A stretch of DNA of 64,000 nt, from IMG/VR virus record IMGVR_UViG_3300047548_001872; one strand, written 5' to 3'. The notes beneath the pieces are model-generated. The model saw only the letters and a list, made by a program, of their open reading frames with translations. It made no database searches and was not told the origin of the DNA. A program made the position numbers and the translations under genes. This stretch comes from a virus. Taxonomy: Duplodnaviria > Heunggongvirae > Uroviricota > Caudoviricetes. Below are positions 6,565-58,800 of the stretch, one piece after another (the stretch's first letter is position 1; each line of letters begins with the position of its first letter).

Positions 6565-8463
6565 TTATAAGGTTGTTAGTTGAATTGCTTCGGTATCTGT
6601 TATTTGGGTTTTTGATAAATAAAAATCATTGATACCTCCACCCCATTGTCTAAGATTATTCCTATGACCTAAAGCAATTGTATCCATAGCTGGTATAGCA
6701 GTAGTTGCCAGTGGGGCTTGTTGTACACCATTCAAAAATATTTTTGTTCCTGATGTACTATACACTACGGCAAGTTTATTAAGTCCTGATAATGGCGTTA
6801 AAGTTCTTGCTGCTAAATCACCTCCTGTTAGTATAGTTAATATTAAGTTTTGCATATTATTACTTGTTTGTAATGTTATGTTTTCAGTTGCTAAATCCGA
6901 GAATAAAACAAGTAGACTTTTGATACCTAATGGATATGGTGTTCCATAAAATTCCAAAAATATTGTACCCTCTGTCTGTCCAATTAAATCAGTCGCCCCT
7001 GTTCTTGTTATAACATCGGCATTTCTTGTTACAGCAACCGTTGATGTTGGTATTACTGAAGTTTGAAATGCTTGTTGTTCCATTTGAGGCATGCCTATTC
7101 TGACTGTAAAGTCGTATGATTGACCAGTTGTAGTGACAAATTCAAGTATAGGTTGAACCCTTGCAACTGTTGCTCCACCAGAAAGTGTTCTTGTGTAACT
7201 AAATCTTTGTAAAGTAGTTGTTGGGGTTATATTTTGAAAACCAGCAGCAACAAATCCTCCAATGCTTGTTAGTTCAAACATTAGTAATCTAAAAAATGTT
7301 GGGGGTTGTGGTTGTGAAACCACTTTAACATAACTTGATAATGTCCAAGTTTGACCTGTTGCTGCTACTATTTGTGTTGTAGGTTCAAATAGTATTCTTT
7401 GTAATGCTGTACCTGCCCCTCCAGCCGTTCCAGAAAGTCTTAAATCAACATACTCAACCCCATTTTCTACACCTAATCCAACAACTTCCCTTGTTAACCC
7501 AATTAAACTTTGAGTCCAGTTAGTAGGTAATGTCCCTGTGTTTCCTACAACAGCACCAACCATTGTGTTGTTTCTGATTTCATTTCTTGACTGTGGTTCA
7601 ACAAGTATTGCTGGACAAGTTCCATTAGAATAATCTAAACGTGCAATATTTGATGCGCTTGTGCCATCTTGTGTTAATCCTTGAAATTTTGTTCTAACGG
7701 ATGAAGTTGTTGGTATGTATTCTCCTGCACGATTTGATTGCTCAAGCTGTGCGCCCCAGACATAACAAACATCTTCAGCAACAGTTGATTGATAAGAGGG
7801 GTATCTACCACTATTCGTGTTATTTGTTGTTACAACTTCACAACCTGTAAAAGTACCAGATGATAATGCTGTTGCTTGCAAAGTACATCTATACCAACCA
7901 TTACCAACATCAGTTATTGTTGCAATAGCTCCAGCTCCTATATTTCCAATTACACCATTTTCTAAATCAAAATTAACCCAATTACTTGCTGTAAATGGAA
8001 CGTCTGATACATAAACTAATTGTATCCATCTATGGTTAGCTTTTTTTAAATAATATGATGTTGTATAAGTAGTGTTTGAGATAAAATTTGTAGACTGTTG
8101 AAGTCTATGTCTTACCGATGAAATATCAACGCCTAATCTCAAAGTATCTGCTGTTAAAGTTCCATCTGGTGCAATTACAGTGTTTGCCGTAATGGTCAAA
8201 TTTATTTTATTCCATATTCCTTGTGAAAACATTTCACTTTGCAAAAACAAATTAGTTATAGGCGTTTCAACAGCACCTAAACTATTTACTCTTGTTGCGC
8301 TTGTTGCTCTTGTAACCGTAAAATCTCCACTGCCATCAGTTGGTTTTAATGAATATAGCTTATTAACGCCTACTCCATTAGGAGTTACAATTAAACTTGC
8401 ATCATTATAAAAACTTCCCATTGCTATTATTGATTTAATGTTACTAATAGTGCGGTAAGACAT
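6565..8463 (-). CDS. large beta-rich (T/S/G/N/V-rich) structural-like protein; candidate virion/receptor-binding protein
   Basis: 632 aa. Composition is typical of jelly-roll or fibre proteins. No catalytic motif seen. Confidence 0.45.
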   Translation of the reverse strand: MSYRTISNIKSIIAMGSFYNDASLIVTPNGVGVNKLYSLKPTDGSGDFTVTRATSATRVNSLGAVETPITNLFLQSEMFSQGIWNKINLTITANTVIAPDGTLTADTLRLGVDISSVRHRLQQSTNFISNTTYTTSYYLKKANHRWIQLVYVSDVPFTASNWVNFDLENGVIGNIGAGAIATITDVGNGWYRCTLQATALSSGTFTGCEVVTTNNTNSGRYPSYQSTVAEDVCYVWGAQLEQSNRAGEYIPTTSSVRTKFQGLTQDGTSASNIARLDYSNGTCPAILVEPQSRNEIRNNTMVGAVVGNTGTLPTNWTQSLIGLTREVVGLGVENGVEYVDLRLSGTAGGAGTALQRILFEPTTQIVAATGQTWTLSSYVKVVSQPQPPTFFRLLMFELTSIGGFVAAGFQNITPTTTLQRFSYTRTLSGGATVARVQPILEFVTTTGQSYDFTVRIGMPQMEQQAFQTSVIPTSTVAVTRNADVITRTGATDLIGQTEGTIFLEFYGTPYPLGIKSLLVLFSDLATENITLQTSNNMQNLILTILTGGDLAARTLTPLSGLNKLAVVYSTSGTKIFLNGVQQAPLATTAIPAMDTIALGHRNNLRQWGGGINDFYLSKTQITDTEAIQLTTL

Positions 8464-14747: not shown

Positions 14748-16466
14748 ATGAAGATTTCACTTTCCATAGAAAACATCGAAAAATTGGACAGTATTTTTTA
14801 CCGACATTTTTCTTCGGATTACTTTAATTATTCTGTCAGAAGATTAATTAAAGATGAAGATGCGGATAAAACACAAACATTTCCGTTTGACTTATCGGTA
14901 CTTGACTTAGAAAAATGCAAAGATTTCAAAGTCAAACTTGAAGAATTAAAAGTTCATAAAAAAACAATAACGACTGTTGACAATTGGATTAAGGCAATAT
15001 CCAATCCCTCAGATGTTGTTATTACATCTTTGAATTTTTTAGAAAAAACCATTGTCAATTCTTTAAAGACAATGAAGAAGACATACTTGTACTACAAAAA
15101 CCCCGATGAGTGCTTGGTTCGCTATGCTGTTTCCAGAGTTAAATATTCCGTGACAAGAGACGACGGAGCATTTGTGTCTTTGTCTTTAGCTGCTTTAAAT
15201 TATAATGTGCCTAATGGATATTACCACGACAACAATGATAAAATCGAAATCGGAAAAATAGAAACCATAATCCATTTTCAAAAGTCAGATATATCCAAAA
15301 TTTCTGAATCAGATATAGATTTCTTGTTAGACGATGAAAACAAGAAAGATGATTCCAGCACCGCTAAAAACTTCTTTTTTTCAAAAATATTATTTAACAA
15401 AAAGCTCTATTTGCCAACGGATGAACTGGATGAGGAGTATGAGGCTTCACTAAAAAAAGCATACGATTTGAGAAAAAAAGTCGGTCTTGTCTTTACAACC
15501 AATTCTATTGGAAGATTAATTTCAGACCCCCCAAGAGGCTCTTCGAATTGGAGAGTAATCAATAATGACAACCTAAAGTCAAGGTTGGTGGTAGATGTAA
15601 CACCAGAGCAAAAAGTTTCCTCAACCATATCTTCTGAAAACTTTGGAAATGTTGAATTGCCAGAACACCCTTATTGCTTGTTTTATGACTTGGCAAATTT
15701 TAGATATGTACTTCTTCACATTGAAAATTGCTTGCCTTATGTATATGACAAGACAATAATTGACAAGTTAGTTTTGAACACCAAAACTAAAGAGATATTG
15801 AAATCTTTAATTGGTTCTAAAAATAATTTTGAGGATATCATTTCAGGGAAAAGCGGTGGTATTGTAATACTTTCATCGGGAGGGGCAGGACTTGGAAAAA
15901 CCTTAACCGCTGAAGTTTATTCGGAACTTATGGAAAAGCCATTGTATTCGGTGCAATCTGCACAATTAGGTATCGATATAAAAGAAATCGAGAAAAACTT
16001 AAATAAGGTTTTAAATCGTGCCGAAAAATGGGGTGCAGTTTTGCTAATTGATGAAGCTGATACTTACGTTTATGAGCGAGGCAAAGACATTTTGCAAAAC
16101 GCTATTGTTGGCACGTTCTTGCGATTGATGGAGTATTACAACGGAATTTTGTTTTTGACAACAAATAGACCTGATATTGTAGACGATGCAATTATGTCAA
16201 GGGTTACTTTGCACATACCTTATAACTTACCAAACAAAGAGGAAAGTTCATTGTTGTGGTCTATCTTAACGGATAATTTTTCAATCAAAATTTCAGAGGA
16301 AACAAAATCCGACATTTGGGAAAAATACCAGCCGATGAGTGGTCGTGACATTCGTAATTTTTTGAAAGATGTAAAAAAAATATACAAGGATTCGAATGAG
16401 GTAAAAATTTCAATGCTTGAAGACTTATCGAACTTCTTGCCATTCTTGAAAGCAAAATCAAATTAA
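14748..16466 (+). CDS. AAA-family ATPase with ~350-aa N-terminal extension
   Basis: Walker A GGAGLGKT, Walker B LLIDEAD, sensor-1 and second region of homology LFLTTNRPDIVDDAIMSR (canonical AAA). Confidence 0.8.
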   Translation: MKISLSIENIEKLDSIFYRHFSSDYFNYSVRRLIKDEDADKTQTFPFDLSVLDLEKCKDFKVKLEELKVHKKTITTVDNWIKAISNPSDVVITSLNFLEKTIVNSLKTMKKTYLYYKNPDECLVRYAVSRVKYSVTRDDGAFVSLSLAALNYNVPNGYYHDNNDKIEIGKIETIIHFQKSDISKISESDIDFLLDDENKKDDSSTAKNFFFSKILFNKKLYLPTDELDEEYEASLKKAYDLRKKVGLVFTTNSIGRLISDPPRGSSNWRVINNDNLKSRLVVDVTPEQKVSSTISSENFGNVELPEHPYCLFYDLANFRYVLLHIENCLPYVYDKTIIDKLVLNTKTKEILKSLIGSKNNFEDIISGKSGGIVILSSGGAGLGKTLTAEVYSELMEKPLYSVQSAQLGIDIKEIEKNLNKVLNRAEKWGAVLLIDEADTYVYERGKDILQNAIVGTFLRLMEYYNGILFLTTNRPDIVDDAIMSRVTLHIPYNLPNKEESSLLWSILTDNFSIKISEETKSDIWEKYQPMSGRDIRNFLKDVKKIYKDSNEVKISMLEDLSNFLPFLKAKSN

Positions 16467-26256: not shown

Positions 26257-26493
26257 ATGTCAGAGCTAAAGGACTTTATACAGCAGCAAATTTCAATTAC
26301 TTCCTCGGAAATAGTTGAGCTAACAAAACTCAAAAATAATTACGTGAAGTTTGCTTATTCCGAAACTTTGAATGGTCGCATGAGAAAAATTGATTTTGAA
26401 CACTTGATAAATGAGGTTCAAAATATTGCTTTGCAAATTGCAAAACTTGAAGAAATATTATCAGATTACAACAAACACTTTAATGTATTTTAA
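26257..26493 (+). CDS. hypothetical protein
   Basis: 78 aa. Confidence 0.4.
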   Translation: MSELKDFIQQQISITSSEIVELTKLKNNYVKFAYSETLNGRMRKIDFEHLINEVQNIALQIAKLEEILSDYNKHFNVF

Positions 26494-26494
26494 C

Positions 26495-27295
26495 ATGTCA
26501 AACTTGCCTGCAACATTAACAAACAACTTCAATGAGGGTATTCAAAAATATGAATCCACAAGTCTAACCGAATTATTGTCTGGAAGTGGGGTAACTCCTC
26601 AAAAATTCAAGCATGTATTGCATCAGGAATTAGAAAGGTCTTTACAACTCCAAGAGGCATTTTCCTTAAACCCAGCTTCTTTTTTCGCTACGGCTTTATA
26701 TTGTGCTGAACTAAATTTATCACCCTCCAGTTTGGTCGGTGAATTCTTTTTCAACGTTTCCCATAATAGGATATCTCCTATTTTGGGCTATAAAGGATTA
26801 GTAACTCTTCTGTCAAGGAATAGTCAAGTGAAAAAAATATGGTCGGAAGTCGTTTATGAAGATGATGACTTTGAGTATGAGTTAGGTCTTGAGCCTAAGT
26901 TAATGCATATACCTAATCATAATGCTTCAAGAAAAAGTAAAGACATCAAGTATATTTATGCTTGCGCCAAACTTAATGATGAGGTTTCTTTCAAGGTTAT
27001 GTCGCTCCGAGAGATTAAAAGCATTATCGATATTATTGAATTGCCAAGCGAACTCTATTTTAATGATACCCTTGACCCAGAAAAATGGATGCTAAAAAAG
27101 GTTGTCTTAAAGCAATTATCAAAACTTCTGCCTAAAGAGGATGACCGATTGAAAAAAGCCATTTCTTATGATGATAAAATCGAAGGAGGTGCTTATTTGG
27201 TTTTAGACGAAAATGATTCAGTAAAAGTTGTTCAAGGAACAATCGTGAATAAAAAAGGGGGAATCTACCAAAGTATTTTAGGTGGCAAAGATTAA
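26495..27295 (+). CDS. RecT-like single-strand annealing protein
   Basis: Start at MSNLPAT (26495). LGYKGLVTLLSRNSQVKKIWSEVVYEDDDFEY resembles the RecT core (gY.Gl..la.rsg....i...VyegDeF). Confidence 0.55.
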   Translation: MSNLPATLTNNFNEGIQKYESTSLTELLSGSGVTPQKFKHVLHQELERSLQLQEAFSLNPASFFATALYCAELNLSPSSLVGEFFFNVSHNRISPILGYKGLVTLLSRNSQVKKIWSEVVYEDDDFEYELGLEPKLMHIPNHNASRKSKDIKYIYACAKLNDEVSFKVMSLREIKSIIDIIELPSELYFNDTLDPEKWMLKKVVLKQLSKLLPKEDDRLKKAISYDDKIEGGAYLVLDENDSVKVVQGTIVNKKGGIYQSILGGKD

Positions 27296-27445: not shown

Positions 27446-27852
27446 TAGAATAAGTCAATTTTATTGAACACGTATTGGTTTGACGAAATGTAAATAACGT
27501 TTCCAGAAGCCCTAAAAGTTCCTAAGCCAAAAGAATTCAAATTATCAAGAACATCTTGAATGTTATCAACCTTCTTGCCAAGAACCTGATATAGTGATGG
27601 AAATCCAACCACACCTAACGCAGTGTTGAAAACAGCCACATAATTTTCCCCTGACAAATCCCATTGATATAAAACAGTCGGGGTAGTTGCGTTAGGGTCT
27701 TGATTCCCTCCTAATATACTGACGGGTTGAGTAAAAGCTGTGTTATTGACAACTTGTAAGTTGATAGTGTCGTCTATTGGAGTTATTCTTTGTTCCATAG
27801 TGTGGTTATTTTTTTCTCTTGTAAAAATAATAAAATAATAATCCAACGACAA
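27445..27852 (-). CDS. hypothetical protein
   Basis: 135 aa. The start is possibly at an internal Met. Confidence 0.45.
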   Translation of the reverse strand: MSLDYYFIIFTREKNNHTMEQRITPIDDTINLQVVNNTAFTQPVSILGGNQDPNATTPTVLYQWDLSGENYVAVFNTALGVVGFPSLYQVLGKKVDNIQDVLDNLNSFGLGTFRASGNVIYISSNQYVFNKIDLF

Positions 27853-28264
27853 AAACGCTTGTAAATCTAATCACTTGCGGACTAAGGTAGTTTTTGTCTT
27901 TAACAAAGTTCACAAAATGCTCACAATTGTAGTTGAAGAAGTCGTATTTGAAGGGTTTTAGACTATTGTAAATTTCCTTTATTTGGTTCAAGTCAATATT
28001 AGTACTTTCAATAGACAAAATCTCTTTGCCTTTAATCCAATCTTGCAAAGGCTCTCTTACCGTGTTACCACCTTTCGAATTAGTTTTGTCAGGGTGATTA
28101 TGAATAATATACAAACCATCGTTAGATTTTTCTATCAAACCATAATGGAAAACGAAGGGATGATAGTCGGATTTTACCTTAATCAAATCTCCATTTTTCA
28201 GATTTTCTATTTTTCTAATTTTAGACTTGTGCTTTAAAAATTCTATGGTCGAATTATATTTCAT
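27806..28264 (-). CDS. LRAT/NlpC-P60-superfamily (H-RAS-like suppressor type) protein
   Basis: His ...IIHNHPD... and the NCEHFV Cys motif characteristic of LRAT-like acyltransferases/phospholipases. Confidence 0.5.
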   Translation of the reverse strand: MKYNSTIEFLKHKSKIRKIENLKNGDLIKVKSDYHPFVFHYGLIEKSNDGLYIIHNHPDKTNSKGGNTVREPLQDWIKGKEILSIESTNIDLNQIKEIYNSLKPFKYDFFNYNCEHFVNFVKDKNYLSPQVIRFTSVFVVGLLFYYFYKRKK

Positions 28265-28727: not shown

Positions 28728-29063
28728 TTATTCTTCTTCAGCAATTAATTTTCCGCTTTTGTCCAAAGCTCTTAATTTCTTGGTATTCTTGTTAATCATG
28801 ACTTTTAAGCCATATTCTTTAAGAATCATGTCTTTCAGCTTGTTTAAGGCATCGGGCTTTTCTTTATTGTTAATGGCATCTCTCATCGCCTGCAATGCAA
28901 CGAATGAATCCTCTCTTTGTTTTTGCAAAGTAGAATCAGCCTCTTTTGGAGAAGCGTACTTTTCCGTAGGCTGTTTTTCAGTTGGTTTTTTCGGTCTTGT
29001 TACCAATAAAATTACGATTCCTAAGCCTAATGCCAACAAGAATGTTTTTGTTTCTTTATCCAT
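28728..29063 (-). CDS. N-anchored membrane protein
   Basis: TM segment FLLALGLGIVILLVT. Confidence 0.45.
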   Translation of the reverse strand: MDKETKTFLLALGLGIVILLVTRPKKPTEKQPTEKYASPKEADSTLQKQREDSFVALQAMRDAINNKEKPDALNKLKDMILKEYGLKVMINKNTKKLRALDKSGKLIAEEE

Positions 29064-29427
29064 TTTTGTCTTTTAATTTTTGTACTACAATAATTAGCGC
29101 AACAACACCCACGCCAAGGAAAACAAAGTTAAGAATCCTTTTTTTAGTAATATCTTTTTTGATTTCACTTTCTTTTACTTTGTTCAAATATTCAAACAGT
29201 ACTTCAGTTTTTTTTAGTTCAGTACTAACGGAAGCAACTTTGTTTTTTAGCTCTTCTTGTTGCTGGTTGTTTAGTGCTGATAGCTTTCTTGCAAGTTCCT
29301 TGTTTTTTTGAGCTTGACCTTGCGCAAACAAAAAACCAACGCCAGTTTGTATAGCTATGCTTACTCCCATGCTCACAGGGTCAAATTTTGTGCCATCAGC
29401 ATTAAGATATCCTTTACAATCTGACAT
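29056..29427 (-). CDS. tail-anchored membrane protein with coiled coil
   Basis: C-terminal TM segment FVFLGVGVVALIIVV. Confidence 0.45.
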   Translation of the reverse strand: MSDCKGYLNADGTKFDPVSMGVSIAIQTGVGFLFAQGQAQKNKELARKLSALNNQQQEELKNKVASVSTELKKTEVLFEYLNKVKESEIKKDITKKRILNFVFLGVGVVALIIVVQKLKDKNG

Positions 29428-29428
29428 A

Positions 29429-29983
29429 CTAATCCTTTTTTACAATTAAAGAAACCCCGTAAATTATTCCTACGGCTAAACCTAATCCAACAACGTAAAT
29501 CCAAGTGTCTTTTAGCCTTGTGGTACTTTCTTGCTGTAATGTTTGTCTATACTGAAGCAAAGTGTTGGAAAATATCCTTAAACGCTCGGTTTCCGCCTCC
29601 GTCTTGATTTTCTCGTAGGCAATCTTTTCATTGGTTGAAAGTTCGGCTAATTTCAAATTAACCATCAATTCTCTTTGCTTTTTAGCCTGTCTTCCACCAA
29701 ACAACCCACCAACAACCGAACTGGCAAGAGATGCTCCTGCCATTACCACTAAAGGAGCAACATTTACATAACCCTCGTTTAGAATCAAAGAATCCAATTC
29801 TTTGGAAAAATCGATGTTTTTCTTGACCGACAAAGCGTCAAAAGTTTGTTCATAGATTTGCTGAAGCGAGGCGGTATCCATCTGGATATCATACCCATAC
29901 TTCTGTAACAAAGGCACAATAAGCTGTGGTTTGTCGTAAATAAAATCAATGATTTCTTTGGTTTGCTTGTCAACTTGATTCAT
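29429..29983 (-). CDS. membrane protein
   Basis: Hydrophobic segments VVMAGASLASSVVGGLFG and VVGLGLAVGIIYGVSLIV. Confidence 0.45.
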   Translation of the reverse strand: MNQVDKQTKEIIDFIYDKPQLIVPLLQKYGYDIQMDTASLQQIYEQTFDALSVKKNIDFSKELDSLILNEGYVNVAPLVVMAGASLASSVVGGLFGGRQAKKQRELMVNLKLAELSTNEKIAYEKIKTEAETERLRIFSNTLLQYRQTLQQESTTRLKDTWIYVVGLGLAVGIIYGVSLIVKKD

Positions 29984-30042
29984 CAGTACAGTTTTTATCT
30001 TAAACTAACGACAATTTTACGAAATAGTTTTTAATAAATACC

Positions 30043-30912
30043 TTATTTTAAAGCCTTTATTATAAAATTAGCATCAAAGACTTCGTTTAAATTATTGTAG
30101 GGAAATGAATTCAAATCTTCGAATAAGAAATGCTTTTGATAATTAGAATGCTCAATTTGCCGTTCTACCGTAGGCTTATTTGCAAGAATGTTGGTGTGCA
30201 TCTCATATCCAAAAACTTTCGGGCTTGTTGTGACCCATGTAACTACGGAAGGCAATCCCAAGGCAGTTGCAAGGTGCATTGTGCTGCTATCGATTAAAAG
30301 CCTTTTTTCCGATAATGTTAGCAACACGGCAATACTTCTGATTTCATCAGTTGCCTGTAAAGTGTTTGGAAGCGCCAATTGGTCAGGTCTTTTAACATGC
30401 ACAATAGCATATTGATTTTTAAATTTCTCAATCACTTCCTCGATAATAGGAGAGGGTATGTCCCTTGTCCAAGAATACTTTAACGGCTGATTCATCGCAC
30501 CCCCGTTAGGATGAATTACCATAATGGGCTTGTCCAATTTGTAAAATTGTTGAAAGTATTCCTTTTCTGCTTTTCGCAAAAAGAACTCTGGCATTTCCCC
30601 ATCATATTCCAAACCATAAGTTTCGCACCATATTTTGATAAGATGATTTTGCTCGGTGATGAAGTCGGATGTACTGTATGGGTCAGTAACAAAAACCTTG
30701 CAGTCTTTTTTTTCAATGTAGTTTTTATGAATCCCAACCAACTGGTCATGCTTGAGTACTTTGTTTACATTTGGGTTTCCGATGAAAATTTCAGGGTAGT
30801 GTGTAACGACAATTATGTTCGCCTTGTTGTATTTCTTTTTGATTGCTTTTAATACTGCCGTTCCGATTATGGACTTTCCGATGCCCCCATCGATTTGATA
30901 GATTATATTCAT
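30043..30912 (-). CDS. glycosyltransferase, GT9 (heptosyltransferase)-like
   Basis: N-terminal IDGGIGKSIIGTAVLKAIKKKY resembles the ADP-heptose:LPS heptosyltransferase N-terminus. Confidence 0.45.
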   Translation of the reverse strand: MNIIYQIDGGIGKSIIGTAVLKAIKKKYNKANIIVVTHYPEIFIGNPNVNKVLKHDQLVGIHKNYIEKKDCKVFVTDPYSTSDFITEQNHLIKIWCETYGLEYDGEMPEFFLRKAEKEYFQQFYKLDKPIMVIHPNGGAMNQPLKYSWTRDIPSPIIEEVIEKFKNQYAIVHVKRPDQLALPNTLQATDEIRSIAVLLTLSEKRLLIDSSTMHLATALGLPSVVTWVTTSPKVFGYEMHTNILANKPTVERQIEHSNYQKHFLFEDLNSFPYNNLNEVFDANFIIKALK

Positions 30913-30915
30913 AGT

Positions 30916-31140
30916 TTAGTCTTTTTTGTTGTCAGTTCCTTTTAATCCAAAATTTGACAATTTGTACCATGCTCTTTCGTGTAGTAGGTAAATTATAGGT
31001 TTTACACACATTTCCGTAACGCCTATACTTCCTGCAACCCAAAAATTACCTGTAAAAAAATAAGAAATTAGGCACGTTTGAAGTGTGCCTAACATCCTAT
31101 AAGTGATTGCTTTTGCTATATGCCTTTTAAAATGTACCAT
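30916..31140 (-). CDS. DUF2061 membrane protein
   Basis: From Met MVHFKRH. HIAKAITYRMLGTLQTCLISYFFTGN...YLLHERAWY matches the DUF2061 pattern (commonly linked to sulfate-activation genes). Confidence 0.5.
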   Translation of the reverse strand: MVHFKRHIAKAITYRMLGTLQTCLISYFFTGNFWVAGSIGVTEMCVKPIIYLLHERAWYKLSNFGLKGTDNKKD

Positions 31141-31477
31141 CTTTGAACCCTTTATTTCTCCTGATATTAATGCCAACTGCTTTTTTATCGGAGCTGCCTT
31201 CAGGGATATCATTTATCACATATCTTGTGCCTCTTCCGATTTCCATTAGCAAAGTGTGGTACTTAACACCAATCTTTTCAAGTTCTTCTTTGGTGTAATC
31301 TTCCAAAACCTTCGGTCTTGCAGTTGTAATAACGATATGAGAACCTTTGTCAAACTCAGAATTAACTTTGTCAATAACATCTTGAATTGGCTCTACATCC
31401 AAACTCAACATTAATGAGAATGGTCGGTACTTTACAAGAGTGCCATCAATATCTACAAAATAAGTGTCATTTTTCAT
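31127..31477 (-). CDS. small HAD-superfamily phosphatase
   Basis: Motif I VDIDGTL, motif II ITTAR, Lys, VINDIPEG. Confidence 0.55.
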   Translation of the reverse strand: MKNDTYFVDIDGTLVKYRPFSLMLSLDVEPIQDVIDKVNSEFDKGSHIVITTARPKVLEDYTKEELEKIGVKYHTLLMEIGRGTRYVINDIPEGSSDKKAVGINIRRNKGFKDGTF

Positions 31478-31935
31478 TACAACTCTCCTTTTTCTCTCAT
31501 TTTTTCCCTGATTTTAGTGGCGGAGATTTCCGCTATATTAACAGGTGGAACATGCTCGATAATGTCATATCCGACTCCTCTACCAAACTCTACCGAACAA
31601 ATGTCGGGGATTATCATTACCTTAACGGTAGGCAGCCCTGCATTTGAATTTTCATAATTCAAGTCAAAATAGTGTTCTTCAATTTTTTGTCTTACTTCTT
31701 CAGCGGTGAAGGGGTTTTTTTCATCTACCTCGCCATCCCTAACGCAAACCAAAACATTTTTACCCTCAGCCATAGCCTGAGCAAATAAATTCGTGTGAGC
31801 TACGTGTAGGGGCTGAAATCTACCAATGAACATAGCATATTGATTTGGCTTAGGCTCTAACGATGATTTTACGTGTACAACCTTTCTCCAAGTGTCTTTT
31901 TCCAAGACTTCTTTTAATGAATCGTTGATTTCCAT
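31477..31935 (-). CDS. cytidylyltransferase-like nucleotidyltransferase (HxGH; NMNAT / RfaE-domain-II-like)
   Basis: FIGRFQPLHVAH (HxGH) and ISATKIR (ISxTxxR). Start placed at MEINDS (31935), which avoids overlap with the upstream gene. Confidence 0.6.
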   Translation of the reverse strand: MEINDSLKEVLEKDTWRKVVHVKSSLEPKPNQYAMFIGRFQPLHVAHTNLFAQAMAEGKNVLVCVRDGEVDEKNPFTAEEVRQKIEEHYFDLNYENSNAGLPTVKVMIIPDICSVEFGRGVGYDIIEHVPPVNIAEISATKIREKMREKGEL

Positions 31936-31942
31936 GCCCAGA

Positions 31943-32275
31943 TTAATAAATGTTAGCGATATTTTTCTCAACGATAATTTCTCTCGCATCGCAAACAACG
32001 TGATGCTTAACACCTACACCTTCAAATTTTTCCGAAAAGGTTCTTGATTTACAATTAATGATGATTTCAGAAACAAAAAACTCGTTTCCATTTAAAATTA
32101 ATCTCCATTTTTGTGTGCCATCGGTATCGTTGTTGTTGTACCGAATTCTTACCAAAGTCGTTTCATTCTCTTTTTTGAAGAGGACTTTTCTTCCTTCGGA
32201 AATCATTTTCTGAATTTGTTTCACCTGATTACCCATGCCTAAATCGTTAGAGGGATTTTGACTTGTTGATTCCAT
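31943..32275 (-). CDS. hypothetical protein
   Basis: 110 aa. Confidence 0.45.
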   Translation of the reverse strand: MESTSQNPSNDLGMGNQVKQIQKMISEGRKVLFKKENETTLVRIRYNNNDTDGTQKWRLILNGNEFFVSEIIINCKSRTFSEKFEGVGVKHHVVCDAREIIVEKNIANIY

Positions 32276-32756
32276 TTTCTTGTTGTTTTTGTTGTTGATT
32301 AAATTTGTATGTTTCTATTTTCCAAAGAAGGTCATTAAGGCTCTCAAATTCACTTACATTTGTAGTGTCGATTTCAATAAAATCTTCGGTTGGTTTTTGA
32401 TAATCTGCGGTATGGTACATTTCCCTACCACGAACATCGTTTGTGTGAACGTAAATTTCAATAACGTTGTGGGTTTTCTTCAAATCATCTCTCATGTCCT
32501 TGTATGGAGCAACCATTGAAATTATCACATCATATCGTGCGTATTCATCCAAATACTTAGCAATGGCAAAGCCTTGACCAATATTGATTCTTCTTCCGTT
32601 TTCGGAGTAATCTTGATTATTGTTGATTTTTCTTAAATCATCGCCATCAACGATAAAAACTTCTTTACTTGGCTTGGATTCAATCAATGCCTTTCTTAGC
32701 CAATTTGCTAAAGTGGTCTTGCCTGAATGTGGCTGACCCGTGAACAAATAAATCAT
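32247..32756 (-). CDS. cysC: adenylylsulfate (APS) kinase
   Basis: P-loop FTGQPHSGKTTLA plus VDGDDLRKINNNQDYSENGRRINI, equivalent to CysC LDGDNVR...DLGFS..DR.ENIRR. Confidence 0.7.
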   Translation of the reverse strand: MIYLFTGQPHSGKTTLANWLRKALIESKPSKEVFIVDGDDLRKINNNQDYSENGRRINIGQGFAIAKYLDEYARYDVIISMVAPYKDMRDDLKKTHNVIEIYVHTNDVRGREMYHTADYQKPTEDFIEIDTTNVSEFESLNDLLWKIETYKFNQQQKQQENGINKSKSL

Positions 32757-32759
32757 ATC

Positions 32760-33617
32760 TTAAACGTAATTAAATTTGTCAAAAAACCACTTATATGTAT
32801 TCTTGATTTTGGCACACAACTCGTAGCCTAACACATCCATAAAGTCATCATCTAACTTTTCGAACTTAGGTCTAAGAGTGTGGTCTCCGTAGATGCCGTG
32901 AATTTCATCGTTTTCTTTCGTGTATTGAGTGATATTCTCAAAGTCATGACCTTCGTAGTTAGGCAGCCCTAAATAGTCATAAAAACGCTTCATTTCGATT
33001 TCTGGGTTTGACATTAAGTCCTCATATCGAATGAATAAGATGTGTTTGTCCAGTCCTTGTTGAAATATATCTCTTAATCGGTCTAAGGATATCCCTACTG
33101 GAATACCGCTTGCCCATATATCTACCCTCTTGTCGACGGTAGTACCTTGAAGTTGAGAAGGGTCTTGAATGAAGTTTTGTTTGTGTGGGTTTTTTCGGAA
33201 GTTTTTCTCCATAGATGCGTAGATTGCTCTAACATCACGAACCATACAAATGATTTTTGGATTAGGGTAAAGCATGTTAGCAAAAGCATAGTGTACACCC
33301 CAACCTCTATTTTTGTCCAAAACGTATGGTTTGTTGGTTAATGCGTCAAAATATGCTTTGTAACCTTCACGGCAAAAGTTAAGAAATGCCTTTTCCATTT
33401 CTTTTGGGTCTTGAGCCTTGAATTCTGGAGAATGATGGTAGCTATTCCTTGCGCCAAACAACAATTCTAAAGCACCACTTGTGGGGGTGCAATAGAATTC
33501 AGGGTTTTGTGCTACAATATTTTGAAACAAGGTTGAGCCTGCTCTTGGTAAAGAGGAATTATAAAATATTTTCTTGTCCATAAAAAAGTTAGTTTCTTGG
33601 TGTATGTAAAGATACAA
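32760..33617 (-). CDS. sulfotransferase
   Basis: PAPS-binding loop SLPRAGSTLFQNIV (PKSGTT-like). The start may be at MDKKIFY (33581). Confidence 0.55.
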   Translation of the reverse strand: MYLYIHQETNFFMDKKIFYNSSLPRAGSTLFQNIVAQNPEFYCTPTSGALELLFGARNSYHHSPEFKAQDPKEMEKAFLNFCREGYKAYFDALTNKPYVLDKNRGWGVHYAFANMLYPNPKIICMVRDVRAIYASMEKNFRKNPHKQNFIQDPSQLQGTTVDKRVDIWASGIPVGISLDRLRDIFQQGLDKHILFIRYEDLMSNPEIEMKRFYDYLGLPNYEGHDFENITQYTKENDEIHGIYGDHTLRPKFEKLDDDFMDVLGYELCAKIKNTYKWFFDKFNYV

Positions 33618-33653
33618 AAAAAGCCAGAATCAAAATAACTCTCGCATTTTTTA

Positions 33654-33968
33654 TTAATTGTTTTGCAAATTGGCGTGTGCCGTTCTTAGCTCATCGATTA
33701 ACTCATCGATTTTTGTTTTCAAATCGGCTGCATCTTCTCCTTTAATGGAAAATCCTTTTTTAGACATATAACGAATGTCGGAATGATTAAAGATATTGAT
33801 TGCATGATAATTTTGCTCCGCATCGCTATCTGTAGGTTTTTTTGACCAAATATCCGTTACTAATGGCTGAACTTTTGTCAAATTGGTTGTTTTGACTTTT
33901 ACCGAGAACTCGTCGCTATTAATTTGGGTTTCTCCATACCCAAAAATATGAATTGTGAAATTTTTCAT
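33654..33968 (-). CDS. hypothetical protein
   Basis: 104 aa. Confidence 0.45.
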   Translation of the reverse strand: MKNFTIHIFGYGETQINSDEFSVKVKTTNLTKVQPLVTDIWSKKPTDSDAEQNYHAINIFNHSDIRYMSKKGFSIKGEDAADLKTKIDELIDELRTAHANLQNN

Positions 33969-33982
33969 TTTTTTTTATTTTT

Positions 33983-35842
33983 TTAAGTCAAAATTTGAAC
34001 TCCTGAAATGTGGGCAACCCACTTTATAAGGTTATTATTAGGTGATGTGCCTACAATTCTTAAACTACCTCCACTGGCAGAAATGGTAACGGAAAAAGAA
34101 GGGCTATGGAATTTTTCAATATTATTTTGATATAATATTTGTGCCGAGCCTGATGTGTTAGATGCAACGACATAATCCAAAGAACTACTAACTTGCCCTA
34201 CACTATCATCAAACCCAAGTGTTTTAATAGTTATTAAAAGAACATAACCATCAGGGATATTAAATAATAATGATGCTCCATCTAAATACAAGTCAGTATT
34301 TCCTGCCGTTGAATTTGAGTTAAATGCCGTTGCATCTATTTGCTGAACATCACCATTAGTAGTAATACATCCTGACGCATGCGCTCTCTCTCCATACCTG
34401 AACGCTTTAGCAGCAACCCCCCCTAAAATAGAAGAGTATTGCCCACAAGCAGTGTTTTCTTTTCCACCTACCACTAAAGCTAAATCACAGTTTGCAACAT
34501 TATCCGTTCCTCCACCGATGAAAGTAAGTCTACAATTGCTATAGTTATTGTATCCACCTACAATCGAATTCAATTCCCCAAAAGCTCTGTTTGAAAACCC
34601 ACCACCAACAAAGCCATAACAATTTCGTGCGTAGTTGCTTTTACCCCCACCAGTGAAGCTATAGTCCCCTCTTGTTGTGTTAATATATCCCCCACCAATG
34701 AAACTAAAACATCCCAATGCAGTGTTACAATATCCGTTTCCGACAAAACTAAAACATCCCGATGCAGTGTTACATTGCCCATTTAATATAGTAGAATAAT
34801 TTCCTGATGAATTATGGTTAAGCCCATTTATAACCACCCCATACTGAGATGAAGATGTGTTATCTCTTCCATTTCCGACAAAACTATATAATCCAGATGC
34901 GCTATTGCATTTTCCATTTACAACTGAACTAAAATTGTAAGATGCGGTGTTAAAATATCCGTTTCCGACTGAACTATAACCTCCAGATGCGGTATTTTGT
35001 TGCCCCCCAGCAACGGAACTACAATATCCTGATGCGGTATTATAACGACCTGCGCCAACGAAACTATTATATCCTGATGCGGTATTACAATACCCCCCAC
35101 CAACGAAACTGCTGCCTCCTGATGCGGTGTTTAAATAACCTCCACCAATTGAACTAAAACTGCATGATGCGGTATTGTATCGTCCGCCACCAACTGAACT
35201 AAAACCGCATGATGCGGTATTACAAAACCCTCCACCAACGGAACTATAATTTCCTGATGCGGTATTATAAAGCCCTCCAACAACTGAAGATGCTAATCCT
35301 GAAACTGTATTTGAAACCCCTGCACCAATAAAAGATTCATTGCAAGACATAGTGTTGCATTGCCCCGACACAATTGCGGAAGCCGTTATACCATATGCTA
35401 CGGAATTACAATTACCAGCACCTATAAAAGCACTATAACCACCATTACTGTTATATGAACCAGCTCCAATGAAAGCCCTTCCCCCATTAACAGTGTTATT
35501 GTACCCTGAGCCAATAATAGCGTTTGTCCCTACATTACAATTGCTTGACCCACCCACGATAGAGTTGTAGAGTCCGCCAACGTAGTTGTTTACACCGCCT
35601 GAAATAGACCCATTATTACCACTGGCAACATTATTCCCTGTTTTTGGGATTATGGAGTCGCCTTGGTCATATTCGTATGGACTATTACCCCCTAAATTAC
35701 TTACGTAATTTGATAAAGGTTCGGTATTTCCTTGAACGTCTTTAAGCATTAAAACGCCTGTAACACCATCTACAAAAACAGCCAAGCTATTTCCTTCGGG
35801 AGATGTTATGTTATATGGTTGTGATTTAGTTACAGTTCCCAT
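33983..35842 (-). CDS. vertex fibre/spike protein with Gly/Asn-rich repeats
   Basis: 619 aa. About 20 copies of a ~15-aa repeat NTASGxxSxVGGGxx. The N-terminal 50 aa are shared with the next gene. Confidence 0.6.
   Translation of the reverse strand: MGTVTKSQPYNITSPEGNSLAVFVDGVTGVLMLKDVQGNTEPLSNYVSNLGGNSPYEYDQGDSIIPKTGNNVASGNNGSISGGVNNYVGGLYNSIVGGSSNCNVGTNAIIGSGYNNTVNGGRAFIGAGSYNSNGGYSAFIGAGNCNSVAYGITASAIVSGQCNTMSCNESFIGAGVSNTVSGLASSVVGGLYNTASGNYSSVGGGFCNTASCGFSSVGGGRYNTASCSFSSIGGGYLNTASGGSSFVGGGYCNTASGYNSFVGAGRYNTASGYCSSVAGGQQNTASGGYSSVGNGYFNTASYNFSSVVNGKCNSASGLYSFVGNGRDNTSSSQYGVVINGLNHNSSGNYSTILNGQCNTASGCFSFVGNGYCNTALGCFSFIGGGYINTTRGDYSFTGGGKSNYARNCYGFVGGGFSNRAFGELNSIVGGYNNYSNCRLTFIGGGTDNVANCDLALVVGGKENTACGQYSSILGGVAAKAFRYGERAHASGCITTNGDVQQIDATAFNSNSTAGNTDLYLDGASLLFNIPDGYVLLITIKTLGFDDSVGQVSSSLDYVVASNTSGSAQILYQNNIEKFHSPSFSVTISASGGSLRIVGTSPNNNLIKWVAHISGVQILT
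34400..35400 (-). repeat. degenerate ~45-nt coding repeats (NTASG..S.VGGG units)
   Basis: Periodicity visible at the protein level across residues ~150-480. Confidence 0.6.
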
Positions 35843-35850
35843 GTTTTTTT

Positions 35851-36456
35851 TTAAATTTTTATTACCGTTAGTATTACCGATGGAATTTCAGGGTATGGAA
35901 TAACCAAGTTGGCTGGTTCGGCTACAATCTTAATGTTTGTTGTAGGCGTGAGCCAAACAAGTTCTGCATTTTCTCCAGCATTCAATTGAACAATAAAGTT
36001 CCAAGCAGCAACAATTTTTGATTGGTTGGCGTTCCCCATCATAGTTACTTTAGTATTACTATGAGGTACATCAAAACCATTTTTTCGCAACCAAATATCT
36101 ATTGCAACCACTCCACTACCAGAAACTCTGTCTAATTGTGCTGAAAATTGAATGTTATAATAACCTGTTTGAGCAACGGTTATTTTTGTATCGTTAATTA
36201 TCGAAACTCCATTAGAAACGTCAGTCATGTTGTACTTCATCGGAGTAGGGATATTATCTCCTGAAGCGGTTTGTGTTGTTGTGTCGTAAAAAGAGCCAAA
36301 AACACCTGTTTCTGGAATGTAATTTGTTATTGGTTCGGTATTCCCTAAAGCGTCTTTTAAAATAAGTCTATTAGTAATTCCATCTACAAAAACAGCAAGG
36401 CTATTTCCTTGTGGGGAAAATACGTTAGATGCCTGTGATTTATAGACTGAACTCAT
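35851..36456 (-). CDS. vertex/fibre-associated protein sharing its N-terminal domain with 33983..35842
   Basis: MSSVYKSQASNVFSPQGNSLAVFVDGITNRLILKDALGNTEP versus MGTVTKSQPYNITSPEGNSLAVFVDGVTGVLMLKDVQGNTEP. Confidence 0.55.
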   Translation of the reverse strand: MSSVYKSQASNVFSPQGNSLAVFVDGITNRLILKDALGNTEPITNYIPETGVFGSFYDTTTQTASGDNIPTPMKYNMTDVSNGVSIINDTKITVAQTGYYNIQFSAQLDRVSGSGVVAIDIWLRKNGFDVPHSNTKVTMMGNANQSKIVAAWNFIVQLNAGENAELVWLTPTTNIKIVAEPANLVIPYPEIPSVILTVIKI

Positions 36457-55801: not shown

Positions 55802-58800
55802 TTATTTTTTAAGTTCAGCAAAAGCACGTTTTAAAGCTGATTGCCATGACTCTCCATCTTTGCGAATTTCTTTCGCCAAAGCTGTAGCTTGCTTGAATTT
55901 ATTGTTATTTTCTTGTTTTGGCAAACTTCCGCCATTCATAAAGCTCGTCTCATCTAAATCAGATAACTTTAATCGCATTGGTGGTGCGCCAGAGGTCATT
56001 TTATTCAAATAAACAGCCATGATGTAATTATCATCGTCATGGCTTAAAATATGAACGGATTTACCTTCCTTGGTTTTTACTTGTTTGCCCTTCAAGTTAA
56101 CTTTAACTTTCTTGGAGGTTTCTTCTTTTTTGCCCATTAAACCACCAAAAAACTTTTTCTCAGCTTGTTGAGCTTTAACTTTTCCAGCTACTCTATCGCC
56201 AACTTGTTTTGCTTCTTCTTTGGAGTAGAATTTACCAAATTCTTCTTGATATTCGCTTTTAACGGGTTTGCCAACATATTGCTTGGCAACTTTTAACGAC
56301 AACTTTTCAAAGTTTGAAATTTTCCCTCCATACTTGAATTCACCTGTTTCCATAAAGGCTTCAAATATTTCTACTCCTTTATCATGTTGCTCGGAAACAA
56401 CTTTTTCGGTAGTTCTCTTTGGAGTCGTAACAATTAGAGTATAGTATGGGTCTTTATGTGCAGTGTACTTCCACATTTTTACGCCTTTTGTTCCCGTCTC
56501 TTCAACTCTACCTGCTTGGACAGAAGTAATTAAATTGCCTTTAAAGTTTTTGTGGGTTATAAGCCTCCAATCATATCCGTTGTGGTCAGAATACTCGGTT
56601 TCAGCCATCCAGTTGCCTCTTGCATCTTTTCGCAATCGAGTTGTTGGCTTGTTGCTGCTGCTTGCACCTTTAGATGAAGATGAATCTTCAATTGGTTTTG
56701 CATCTTTCTTAACCCAATATCCATTAGCAGGATTTATTTTATTACCGTTTTTCAATTCAACCTCAACAACATCACGTTTTGGAACGTAAAAAGCCTTTTT
56801 AGACAATTCACCGCCATTCATTAGTATGTTTGCTCCATTGAATACATCTGAACCTTTGTAGGTAACTTCTTTTCCATTACGTTTAACCGTAACGGTCTTG
56901 ATGTCAGCTTTTAGGATGTATTTTTTGGCTTTTTTTGAACCTTCTACCATAGAATCAAATTCTCCATCAAGAAGTCTTTTGTATATATCTTTGTAATAAG
57001 CCACTCCTTCTTTGTCTTTGCTTTTAGCTCTCATGTCAATAAGCCTTTTTGCACTTTCTTTCATCTCATCAAGAACTTCTTGAGTAAATTTGCCTGTATC
57101 GCCTTTTGCTCCTAATTTTATTAGGTTATATCCATTTCTCAATCCATCTCTGTCCTGAGTAAAAATATAGGTATTCCCTGATGTATCTAATCGAATATCA
57201 CCATAATCCCCATTTACTGGGTTGCCATAATTATTCATTACGGTGGCATATCTTTTCTCATCTTTTTGATAAACCACATCCCCTACGTTGAATTTTATAT
57301 TTTCATCGGGAGTGAAAGAGTTTTTGGCAAAATATAAATACATCGTGTTAGCTACACCTGAACCCTCCATTTTTGTGACAAAATAAAAAGCCTCCATAAT
57401 GTCCAGTCCGTCCCATTCCGTTAATCTTGCAATGGCTCTTCCATAATCTTCTGCAAGTTTACTTGGAATGAAGTATTCAGACTTGTACGCCTCATCTTTA
57501 TCATCGGTGTCTGCAAGAATTTTTGCTAATTTTAATGCTTCGTCATGAAAATTGGCATCGGTCAAAGCCTCAATTAAGGCTTGATACATAGTTAAATCAT
57601 ACTCTTTTTTGCCCAGATTATCAATTGTGATTCCTTTTTCTTTGGCTATTTTTTGAGCTTGCAAATTCAAACTTCCATTGACTTTACCGCCAAATAAGTA
57701 TGAATTTTTCGTGCTTCCACCATAAGCAAAATCCTCAACCAAATAAGGTATTTGAACAGGTCGACCCATCATGTCGGTAACTCTTGACATTTGAATTTTA
57801 GTCATAGGTATAAATGGGTAATTGCTACCCCAAGCACCTTGTTTAAGGTTTGTTAAACCAACAATTCCATTTTTTTCATGCACATACCAAAGCTCATCAT
57901 CATAAATAACAGGGTCGCCTAAGTACATTTTTCGCTCGATGCTTCCTCCGTTTTCAAACTTCGTGTTAGTCCATCCAAACAATTCAGAATTAGCACGGAA
58001 ATAACGATTACCTCCGACTGATGTATAGTCGATTTCCCCGACGATATTATCCATATTGTCAAACACATTGAAAAAAGCACTAATAACTTGAGAATCGGAT
58101 GTCTGAATCATTGGGGCAATATAATATTCTAAGCCATCCATTTCAAAAGACATATTATCTCTTAGTACAACATCGTTTTTGCCTTTTAGAAAGCCTTTGA
58201 TTTTTTCAAAAGCCATTTCGGAAAACTCTTTTTTGAATTCCTTTTCGGGAACTTCTTCGATTTCAACCATGCCTCTTTCGTTTTCCTCTTCCTCTTCTTT
58301 TAGGTCTTCAATCATTTCTTGTTTACCATCAAGGTAATGGACAACATCCGATAAATCAGCCGTTGCTCTACCCATTTTGGCAATAACCCAAGCAGGAATT
58401 CGAACTGGTTTTTTCAAAATATCCTCCAACTCATCCGAGTGGTGGTCAATTTGCTCATTTTGATTTATAAGCATTTCTTTTGCCTCATCTGAAAGGCTAC
58501 CTCCGTTGGCAAAAAACTCCCCAGCACGTAAGCCCTGAAGCACCTCTTCGGCATTGATAGGCGTGAAAGAGGTATCTCTCTCAAAACCTAATCCAAATCG
58601 ACCTCGATAGTTCTCAAGCTGGCTTCTACTCACCGAACCAACTTCAGCACCATAGCCCAAGTCAACAATTGCCCAAAGGTAATCAGGGTCGTCTGGGTCT
58701 GAATTAATAATAAACCATGTTCCAACACCAGTAGGGTTGAATATTTTAGCAACGACCACTTGTTTAGAGAGGTCGCTGCCTAATGGATATTGACTAAATA

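Follow-up and report, generated by a model that had tools for sequence, protein, structure and literature searches.

A modular phage gene island that probably encodes a sulfation system, including a candidate minimal sulfate adenylyltransferase

What would a tailed phage do with a kinase and a transferase for activated sulfate, and which of its proteins, if any, would carry out the preceding step of sulfate activation? The question is raised by seven genes at positions 30,043 to 33,617 of the IMG/VR virus record IMGVR_UViG_3300047548_001872 (Caudoviricetes), whose 64,000 nucleotides are the window analysed here. A sequence-only reading of this DNA had proposed a virus-encoded sulfation island with a homologue of APS (adenosine 5'-phosphosulfate) kinase and a sulfotransferase of the PAPS (3'-phosphoadenosine 5'-phosphosulfate) type, and family matches together with invariant PAPS motifs bear this out. 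We propose that the island is probably a modular, phage-borne sulfation system consisting of an effector pair and a PAPS-supply set. In the effector pair, a cytoplasmic glycosyltransferase of GT9 fold and a PAPS-dependent sulfotransferase would jointly glycosylate and sulfate an acceptor accessible from the cytoplasm, our favoured guess for which is the neighbouring fibre protein, rich in Ser, Thr and Tyr, or a glycan that it carries; the supply set would keep the sulfotransferase fed during infection.

The island is made up of seven tightly packed minus-strand open reading frames (ORFs) that overlap or are separated by gaps of no more than 7 nt. An identical stretch occurs on a 55-kb Logan contig, where an independent gene call gives the same genes. 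We refer to the island genes as ST, KIN, U110, NT, HAD, DUF2061 and GT, and to a small flanking gene as U104; these and the neighbouring fibre genes are as follows.

ST, 32760..33581, minus strand: 273 amino acids (aa), the ORF extending to a TTG at 33617; PAPS-dependent sulfotransferase of the Sulfotransfer_3 family
KIN, 32247..32756, minus strand: 169 aa; APS-kinase homologue with a shortened lid
U110, 31943..32275, minus strand: 110 aa; orphan conserved domain of ~75 aa with an N-terminal extension
NT, 31477..31935, minus strand: 152 aa with a core of ~120 aa; minimal HxGH/ISxTxxR nucleotidyltransferase, apparently NMNAT-derived; candidate sulfate adenylyltransferase
HAD, 31127..31477, minus strand: 116 aa; minimal HAD-type phosphatase by motif; optional member
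DUF2061, 30916..31140, minus strand: 74 aa, the ORF extending to 31212; small two-helix membrane protein
GT, 30043..30912, minus strand: 289 aa; predicted glycosyltransferase of GT9 fold (GT-B)
U104, 33654..33968, minus strand: 104 aa; small conserved gene separating ST from the fibre gene
Fibre/spike-like protein, 33983..35842, minus strand: 619 aa; Gly/Ser/Thr-rich beta-roll repeats; candidate acceptor
Second fibre-like protein, 35851..36456, minus strand: 201 aa; N-terminus in common with the 619-aa protein

To judge from its homologues and from gene calls, ST more probably starts at the ATG at 33581 (273 aa) than at the TTG at 33617. Pfam scores above cutoff bear out the families named in the sequence-only reading for ST, KIN, NT and DUF2061, while HAD and GT score below cutoff. 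That reading gave six functions for seven genes, and U110 (31943..32275) was the one omitted.

Sulfotransferase, kinase and their recurrence in uncultivated viruses

ST scores above cutoff for both Sulfotransfer_3 (PF13469; E 6.7e-20, 72.7 bits against 27) and Sulfotransfer_1 (PF00685; E 3.3e-13, 50.1 bits against 22) and matches PHROG 27463 (E 2e-43). Its 5'-phosphosulfate-binding motif PRAGST and 3'-phosphate-binding motif RDxR....S (RDVRAIYAS) are invariant, as are the individual residues P12, R13, G15, S16, R115, D116, R118 and S123, so that the earlier assignment to the PAPS-type sulfotransferases holds. The best solved relative of the ST profile is the tyrosylprotein sulfotransferase TPST1 (E 2.4e-10), followed by TPST2, the CurM sulfotransferase, StaL and the cytosolic SULTs. 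The ST family carries an invariant TPTSG aligned to the CGEET segment of the TPSTs, in which the catalytic Glu is E99 of TPST2; because this segment is not conserved, ST is TPST-like and not a TPST.

KIN passes the cutoff of Pfam APS_kinase (E 1.3e-14; 54.9 bits, cutoff 21.1), and its best matches in the PDB are APS kinases. Its P-loop GQPHSGKTT and its DGDDLR align with the GxxGxGK(S/T)T and DGDxxR of canonical kinases, and it keeps YSExGR..N and APY in alignment with canonical APS kinases. The Arg, Tyr, Arg and Asn of the APS-binding site are in register, with VAP at the position of the ISP loop; the corresponding residues of the P. chrysogenum enzyme are presumably R66, F75 and R80, together with that loop. 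By this homology, KIN would convert APS to PAPS.

Two IMG/VR scans, one with ST and one with NT as query and overlapping in a few loci, yielded 158 related viral loci, in which the presence of each gene was scored by tblastn with the window proteins. The same co-directional genes recur together in about 100 IMG/VR contigs, all uncultivated, at 35-73% protein identity and in shuffled order. KIN is found in 133 loci, NT in 125, ST in 109, GT in 97, DUF2061 in 86, and a homologue of the 619-aa fibre protein in 73, while HAD is confined to 4 viral loci and one further locus (L162, below). Among loci with complete flanks, 46 hold ST, KIN, NT, U110, DUF2061 and GT, and 14 lack only U110 from this set of six; smaller sets consist of ST, KIN and GT only (6 loci), GT and ST only (~12) or KIN and NT only (at least 11). 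ST stands alongside KIN and NT in more than 60 loci, and GT occurs without NT in ~18. These gene sets per locus divide the island into two sub-modules: GT with ST as the effectors, and KIN, NT, U110 and DUF2061 as the supply set. HAD is an occasional extra outside both. The arrangement is far beyond chance, and catalytic motifs are invariant across homologues at 35-70% identity; the module is real and under selection. The GC content of the island (0.35-0.365) is the same as that of its flanks, and this match, together with the invariance of motifs across diverged homologues, leads us to reject the idea that the genes are inactive fragments derived from a host.

The lineage is an uncultivated one, since neither the 6-kb region 29000-35000 (as DNA) nor a 356-aa protein encoded elsewhere in the window finds a match among cultured phages. 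Locus L162 is a 132-kb contig (JBBAJS010000009.1) binned with a Sediminibacterium sp. metagenome-assembled genome. It is fully syntenic with window positions 27.8-36.5 kb at 40-72% protein identity, rare HAD gene included. Either it is a phage genome placed in the wrong bin, or it points to a freshwater Bacteroidota as the host.

No homologue of CysD, CysN, CysQ or Sat was found in the window or in the 158 related viral loci, and the Pfam ATP-sulfurylase family reaches only E 0.042 with the island's nucleotidyltransferase. The earlier statement that no classical ATP sulfurylase is present is therefore correct, and lineages of this kind that lack NT, or the whole supply set, would draw on APS or PAPS of the host.

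A small nucleotidyltransferase coupled to the kinase

NT is the protein on which the question of APS supply turns. It matches Pfam CTP_transf_like above cutoff (E 1.4e-7), and its family keeps the GRxQPxHxGH, NPFT and ISxTxxR signature of NadM and archaeal nicotinamide-mononucleotide adenylyltransferases (NMNATs); the window copy reads GRFQPLHVAH and ISATKIR, with HxGH in most homologues. HxGH, ISxTxxR and several arginines are nearly invariant down to ~33% identity. Among PDB sequences the NT profile is nearest to archaeal/NadM NMNATs (E 3e-11), over the first two thirds of the protein only (positions 8-81 of 121), and no ATP sulfurylase is matched at E<=1. Following the IIPDI strand NT is ~20 residues shorter than the archaeal NMNATs and carries an invariant GR(G/K/D)VGY loop (GRGVGY in the window). 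Against the NMNAT equivalog models it scores 26.6 bits where 181.2 are needed (TIGR01527) and 32.9 where 127 are needed, with ~60 N-terminal residues aligned. The AlphaFold2 model is confident (pLDDT 91), and its likeness to Sat is generic, no closer than to other HIGH-motif nucleotidyltransferases; with no profile support either, we reject NT as a canonical Sat. Neither by nearest relatives nor by its pattern of co-occurrence, judged against a heptose pathway and GT9, does it qualify as a heptose-1-phosphate adenylyltransferase (HldE domain II or HldC). From its sequence, NT is best described as an NMNAT-derived minimal adenylyltransferase. It qualifies neither as an NMNAT nor as a Sat or an HldC, and its function has to be read from context.

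That context is the APS kinase, DUF2061 and sulfotransferases, which surround NT in the related viral loci. In every locus holding both genes, KIN lies directly upstream of NT in the same direction, often overlapping it. Only two loci have NT and no recognisable KIN: one lies at a contig end, and the other (L063:8133-8477) encodes a chimeric ORF in which a kinase-like P-loop N-terminus is joined to the C-terminal half of NT, and may have arisen by deletion from a KIN-NT fusion. Such fusions are widespread. In PHROG 10255 the N-terminal half corresponds to KIN and the C-terminal half to NT, and cultured phages with the fusion include Xylella phage Salvo (gp32, L159:5578-6324), Stenotrophomonas phage DLP6 and others. 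A full-database search with NT returned 915 representatives at E<1e-3; among the best 150 of these, many are proteins of 240-380 aa that Pfam and NCBIfam resolve as fusions with an APS kinase, in both domain orders. In seven NT fusion proteins the kinase part scores 158-257 bits on the NCBIfam equivalog TIGR00455 (cutoff 138.7), and these kinases are therefore true APS kinases by the NCBI standard. Many NT homologues also carry the JGI annotation 'adenylylsulfate kinase'.

The surroundings of the fusions point in the same direction. An NT-APSK fusion in Acidobacteriota lies in a cluster with cysN, cysD, an ABC exporter and two glycosyltransferase-sulfotransferase fusion proteins, another fusion lies in a NeuB/CMP-sugar polysaccharide cluster, and a viral-like cluster combines an NT fusion with several GT2 genes, two Sulfotransfer_2 genes, methyltransferases and a radical-SAM gene. 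On a T4-like viral contig, the gene next to an APSK-NT fusion is DUF2061. A protein of 432 aa (P0262) joins NT to a DHH/DHHA1 domain; DHHA1 is the fold of NrnA-type phosphatases acting on PAP (3'-phosphoadenosine 5'-phosphate), and DHH enzymes include PAP phosphatases.

DUF2061 supplies a second line of context. The gene, correctly named before, matches PF09834 at E 2.4e-19 (69.9 bits, cutoff 23.1). A survey with the phage DUF2061 alignment as query and one genome per species gave 80 bacterial loci (L163-L241), mostly in Flavobacteriaceae and Pelagibacteraceae, and clustering of the neighbouring genes places DUF2061 in a cysQ-DUF2061-cysC-cysD-cysN operon in 59-75 of the 80 (for example L227:8218-8817), adjoining rml and ugd polysaccharide genes. 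The bacterial proteins hold a tandem duplicate of the domain and the phage proteins a single copy, which is 45-56% identical to Bacteroidota proteins. We did not find this link between DUF2061 and a PAPS operon stated in the literature searched.

U110 has no family in Pfam, NCBIfam or PHROG and no sequence relative in the PDB; its invariant residues are R45, N47, W57, R58, T79 and H92. Many viral proteins (144-167 aa) are natural fusions with U110 on the N-terminal side of DUF2061, the only kind of fusion that database homologues of U110 show, and on the strength of these fusions we regard U110 and DUF2061 as a membrane-tethered unit of the supply set. It would act as an accessory, much as the DUF2061 domain accompanies cysC and cysDN in bacteria. 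A kinship between U110 and the C-terminal half of bacterial DUF2061 proteins was considered and rejected: that half is the second DUF2061 copy, and a U110 hidden Markov model finds nothing in the bacterial neighbourhoods.

The earlier description of HAD as a minimal HAD phosphatase agrees with its motif I (DIDGT), but all of its Pfam and NCBIfam HAD matches are below cutoff (best HAD_PNKP, E 1.2e-3, with weak HAD-IIIA matches). Its PHROG matches are 1238 (5.7e-12) and the polynucleotide kinase-phosphatase (PNKP) families 415 and 505, and judged by these profiles it resembles PNKP-type 3'-phosphatases more than GmhB. Where present, HAD might, speculatively, remove the 3'-phosphate from PAP as an analogue of CysQ.

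These observations suggest that the most likely role of NT, always coupled as it is to the kinase, is the synthesis of APS from ATP and sulfate, an activity to which the fusions and gene neighbourhoods point. NT would have evolved from an NMNAT-type enzyme by losing the NMN-binding segment, and would form with the APS kinase a two-protein or fused PAPS synthase. Loss of that segment fits a switch to a small anion, and chemically the reaction ATP + sulfate to APS + PPi parallels ATP + NMN to NAD+ + PPi. The sequence-only reading had offered a minimal sulfate adenylyltransferase as one option for this 152-aa HxGH enzyme. Adjacency and fusion to KIN, the fusions to true APS kinases and the link of DUF2061 to the PAPS operon all speak for it, but the nearest relative, by profile and by fold, is NMNAT and not ATP sulfurylase, and the function stays putative; we consider a minimal ATP sulfurylase a plausible candidate whose chances fall somewhat short of even.

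Several observations weigh against the sulfation system as we have drawn it. KIN scores only 49.2 bits on TIGR00455, below its cutoff, and the mobile lid helix (RDPKGLYKKAR...FTGI) is missing ~18 residues in all phage-type KINs; the earlier call of an APS kinase with CysC motifs has the Pfam score, P-loop and DGDxxR in its favour, and the equivalog score and the lid against it. In some viral loci (L158, L242) NT is paired with a full-length kinase instead. NT, for its part, is closest to NMNAT in sequence and fold and below the cutoff of Pfam ATP-sulfurylase (PF01747). The Acidobacteriota NT-APSK fusion adjoins canonical cysD and cysN, from which it follows that NT is not simply a CysDN replacement there, and APS kinases bearing inactive sulfurylase-like domains are known from Thiobacillus denitrificans and Entamoeba histolytica (PMC13213808). 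At least three further phage lineages carry KIN-NT, paired or fused, among genes of DNA and nucleotide metabolism, with no sulfotransferase or GT9 gene within 10 kb, so PAPS may not be the sole product or use of KIN-NT. One relative (L048) has ST and lacks the GT9 gene. In the GT family an invariant GGxGK (K13) in the N-terminal loop seems, by eye in the alignment, to place a Lys at the position of the catalytic Asp of WaaC, presumably D13 of its N-terminal GD motif.

Side observations on the other lineages may be recorded here. In marine group B phages (L113, L126, L130, L135), KIN-NT lies near DUF3310, a DNA methyltransferase, Nudix and a separate DHH protein encoded three genes downstream, and in group C (L143, L151, L153, L147) near ThyX and an ATP-grasp protein. 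Further fusion contexts are the Salvo-like Casjensviridae and L160:4641-5372, with MazG among the neighbouring genes in such lineages. KIN and NT are in places split by an inserted gene for a 2-oxoglutarate-Fe(II) oxygenase or an HNH homing endonuclease (L113:9237-9992, L127:1322-1864).

Part of this evidence would be accommodated if KIN and ST acted as proposed on APS made by the ATP sulfurylase of the host, with NT in a regulatory or scaffolding role or working as some other adenine-nucleotide enzyme. Sets of ST, KIN and GT without NT in 6-8 loci, the cysD and cysN beside the Acidobacteriota fusion, the precedent of non-catalytic sulfurylase-like domains (PMC13213808) and a likeness to Sat that does not exceed that of other HIGH-motif nucleotidyltransferases are all in keeping with such dependence on the host. 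Yet the near-invariance of HxGH, ISxTxxR and the arginines to ~33% identity would be unexpected in a pure scaffold, NT has been kept beside the kinase in at least four unrelated phage lineages, and the NT copy next to cysDN is the very one that lacks a conserved Arg, with GHDVGY (His for the loop Arg) in place of the otherwise conserved GR.VGY. We regard this alternative as unlikely, though it deserves to be taken seriously. Much less probable, in our judgement, is a role in sulfur assimilation, by which the module would boost the conversion of host sulfate into cysteine during infection. Phage cysC is a known auxiliary gene and has been read as serving assimilatory sulfate reduction (PMC10914622), and KIN-NT pairs without a sulfotransferase do exist; in this lineage, however, the kinase gene shares its cluster with those for a sulfotransferase and a glycosyltransferase, no homologue of cysH/PAPS reductase was found in the window or the viral loci (searched with CysD, of the same superfamily), and the bacterial DUF2061-cysC operons stand beside rml/ugd polysaccharide genes rather than genes for cysteine synthesis.

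The origin of NT suggests a different pathway altogether, in which it is a true NMNAT or resembles phosphopantetheine adenylyltransferase, KIN phosphorylates the precursor or the 3'-OH of the product, and ST is nearby by chance, the region being a variable one. The NadM-type signature GRxQPxHxGH...NPFT...ISxTxxR would be explained by such a role in the synthesis of NAD+ or another nucleotide cofactor, as would the company of Nudix, MazG and ThyX, and no sulfotransferase, around KIN-NT in other phages. But NT lacks a segment of ~45 residues found after the PDI strand in archaeal NMNAT and is far under the TIGR01527 cutoff, its fusion partners are equivalog-level APS kinases and not nicotinamide riboside kinases, the set is linked through DUF2061 to the PAPS operon of bacteria, and ST accompanies KIN and NT in over 60 loci; we hold this reading to be improbable. 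The sequence-only reading had further likened HAD, the HxGH enzyme and GT9 to part of the ADP-heptose route, whereby the three would make and transfer an ADP-activated sugar and ST would act separately. The GT9 fold of GT, whose characterised relatives use ADP-heptose, and the HAD-IIIA matches gave grounds for the comparison. HAD, however, is missing from over 95% of related loci (it occurs in ~5 of ~150) and is nearer to PNKP than to GmhB, NT co-varies with KIN and not with GT, three other phage groups have NT but no GT9 gene, and GmhA and a heptose kinase are both missing. On co-occurrence patterns and nearest relatives we reject the route in this form and assign it only a very slight probability.

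Taking the sulfation system as the preferred reading, its fuller form, in which NT represents a third, minimal class of sulfate adenylyltransferase with U110-DUF2061 as its membrane partner and phages sulfate their own tail fibres, is put forward tentatively and may well need revision.

Glycosyltransferase, possible acceptors and surroundings of the island

GT scores below the cutoff of Pfam Glyco_transf_9 (PF01075; 18 bits, cutoff 22), a family that 7 of 36 homologues match at E<=0.01, and its profile has no match among PDB sequences. A fold search with its AlphaFold2 model (pLDDT 84) is headed by GT9 structures, with scores of 16.7 for 3tov, 15.7 for WaaC, 14.6 for WaaF, 14.4 for PnsB1 and 11.9 for TibC against 10.4 for the next fold. 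On this model GT has a GT9-like fold, in agreement with the earlier designation.

No signal peptide or membrane segment is visible in the translations of the island enzymes, which probably places the acceptor in the cytoplasm or on the inner side of the membrane. The 619-aa fibre protein, which has a weak beta-roll Pfam match, is composed of Ser/Thr/Tyr-rich repeats of ~15 aa (GGxxNxASGxYSxVGGG), many with Tyr at a fixed position, and the fibre protein at L048:8045-9661 has such repeats too. The 619-aa protein shares its first ~40 residues with the 201-aa protein, which shows a weak, sub-cutoff match to BclA_C (C1q-like; E 1.1e-5). In the 73 loci that encode them, fibre homologues lie at a median of 2.7 kb from ST on either strand, and this synteny survives rearrangement and strand inversion. 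GT9 enzymes of the TibC type glycosylate Ser on beta-helical adhesin repeats. Fibre synteny, the Ser/Thr/Tyr repeats, the TibC analogy and the giant-virus clusters for fibril glycans discussed below make decoration of the virion fibre our favoured guess, a tentative one; a glycan of the host envelope is just as plausible a target.

The island follows the fibre-like genes; its earlier placement in a virion gene block is plausible, but weakly shown. U104, which has no family in Pfam, NCBIfam or PHROG, lies upstream of ST in 38 loci. A promoter and terminator scan of the island returned sites no more numerous than in shuffled controls, and a separate transcription unit is for that reason not supported.

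Elsewhere in the window, a minus-strand gene just downstream of the island (27806-28264) encodes a 152-aa protein with a PPPDE/LRAT-like papain-fold motif (weak Pfam matches) and a C-terminal hydrophobic tail. It is preceded by three genes (28728-29983), each for a small coiled-coil protein with a membrane segment at its C-terminus, and the four may form a lysis cassette. Further genes encode a RecT-like annealing protein (26411-27295, plus strand), an AAA/ATP-dependent-protease-like protein (14748-16466, plus strand), a homologue of the tail protein PHROG 5939 (6565-8463, minus strand) and a 1010-aa protein with DUF2958 at its N-terminus (55802-58834, minus strand). PHROG gives no match for most of the large ORFs, and the window yielded no tRNA genes.

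Relation to known systems

Viral sulfation is not new in kind. Phage cysC genes are known (PMC10914622), a sulfotransferase is predicted alongside a SAT/APS kinase in giant viruses (PMC10117803), and the earlier remark that a complete virus-encoded sulfation route is rare was overstated. Phage sulfotransferases have been described as unclear in role (PMC10580990); they occur in the cyanophages S-SKS1, S-SRM01 and S-SCSM1, and the gene context in S-SKS1 is uninformative. The island draws on the same families as these phage cysC and sulfotransferase genes and differs in that they are physically linked to each other, to GT and to new partners. The literature we searched holds no prior description of a physical ST-GT-KIN-NT module in phages, of an obligate NT partner of the kinase or of a U110-DUF2061 unit. 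If our reading is correct, many phage 'cysC' auxiliary genes would belong to a dedicated sulfation kit rather than to sulfur assimilation, and DUF2061 and the orphan U110 would gain their first functional context, PAPS synthesis. A candidate ATP sulfurylase this small would be of enzymological interest, with a possible use in PAPS regeneration in vitro, and sulfated or glyco-sulfated tail fibres would be a type of virion modification new to phages, one that would bear on adsorption and host range.

Enzyme by enzyme, the resemblance to known systems is partial. NT differs from the sulfurylase of PAPS synthases (Aquifex Sat-CysC, fungal and metazoan PAPSS) in being about one third the size and in lacking the PUA-like N-domain and QxRN, and from NadM-type NMNATs (MJ0541, 1f9a) in being genomically coupled to an APS kinase instead of NAD genes. 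GT shares its GT-B fold with WaaC, WaaF and TibC, and the beta-helical substrate repeats of TibC resemble the repeats of the neighbouring fibre, but its Pfam score is sub-threshold and no heptose-pathway genes are present.

At the level of gene clusters, two systems are comparable. The bacterial cysQ-DUF2061-cysC-cysD-cysN operon likewise sets DUF2061 beside an APS kinase, with polysaccharide genes nearby; where bacteria use CysDN and CysQ, however, the phage has NT, U110 and sometimes HAD. Among viruses, the Megavirinae (Moumouvirus australiensis, Cotonvirus, Tupanvirus) carry fibril-glycosylation clusters with a bifunctional SAT/APS kinase (Ma457) and a sulfotransferase (Ma461) (PMC10117803). 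The phage island and the giant-virus clusters have in common one or more PAPS-synthesis steps of their own, clustered with a sulfotransferase and glycosyltransferases; decoration of virion fibres is the predicted function of both. By contrast, the giant-virus enzyme is a canonical Sat-APSK fusion of 624-655 aa, whereas the phage has a lid-shortened kinase and a putative adenylyltransferase of ~130 aa that appears to derive from NMNAT, and the phage island alone has a bacterial host and the membrane partners DUF2061 and U110.

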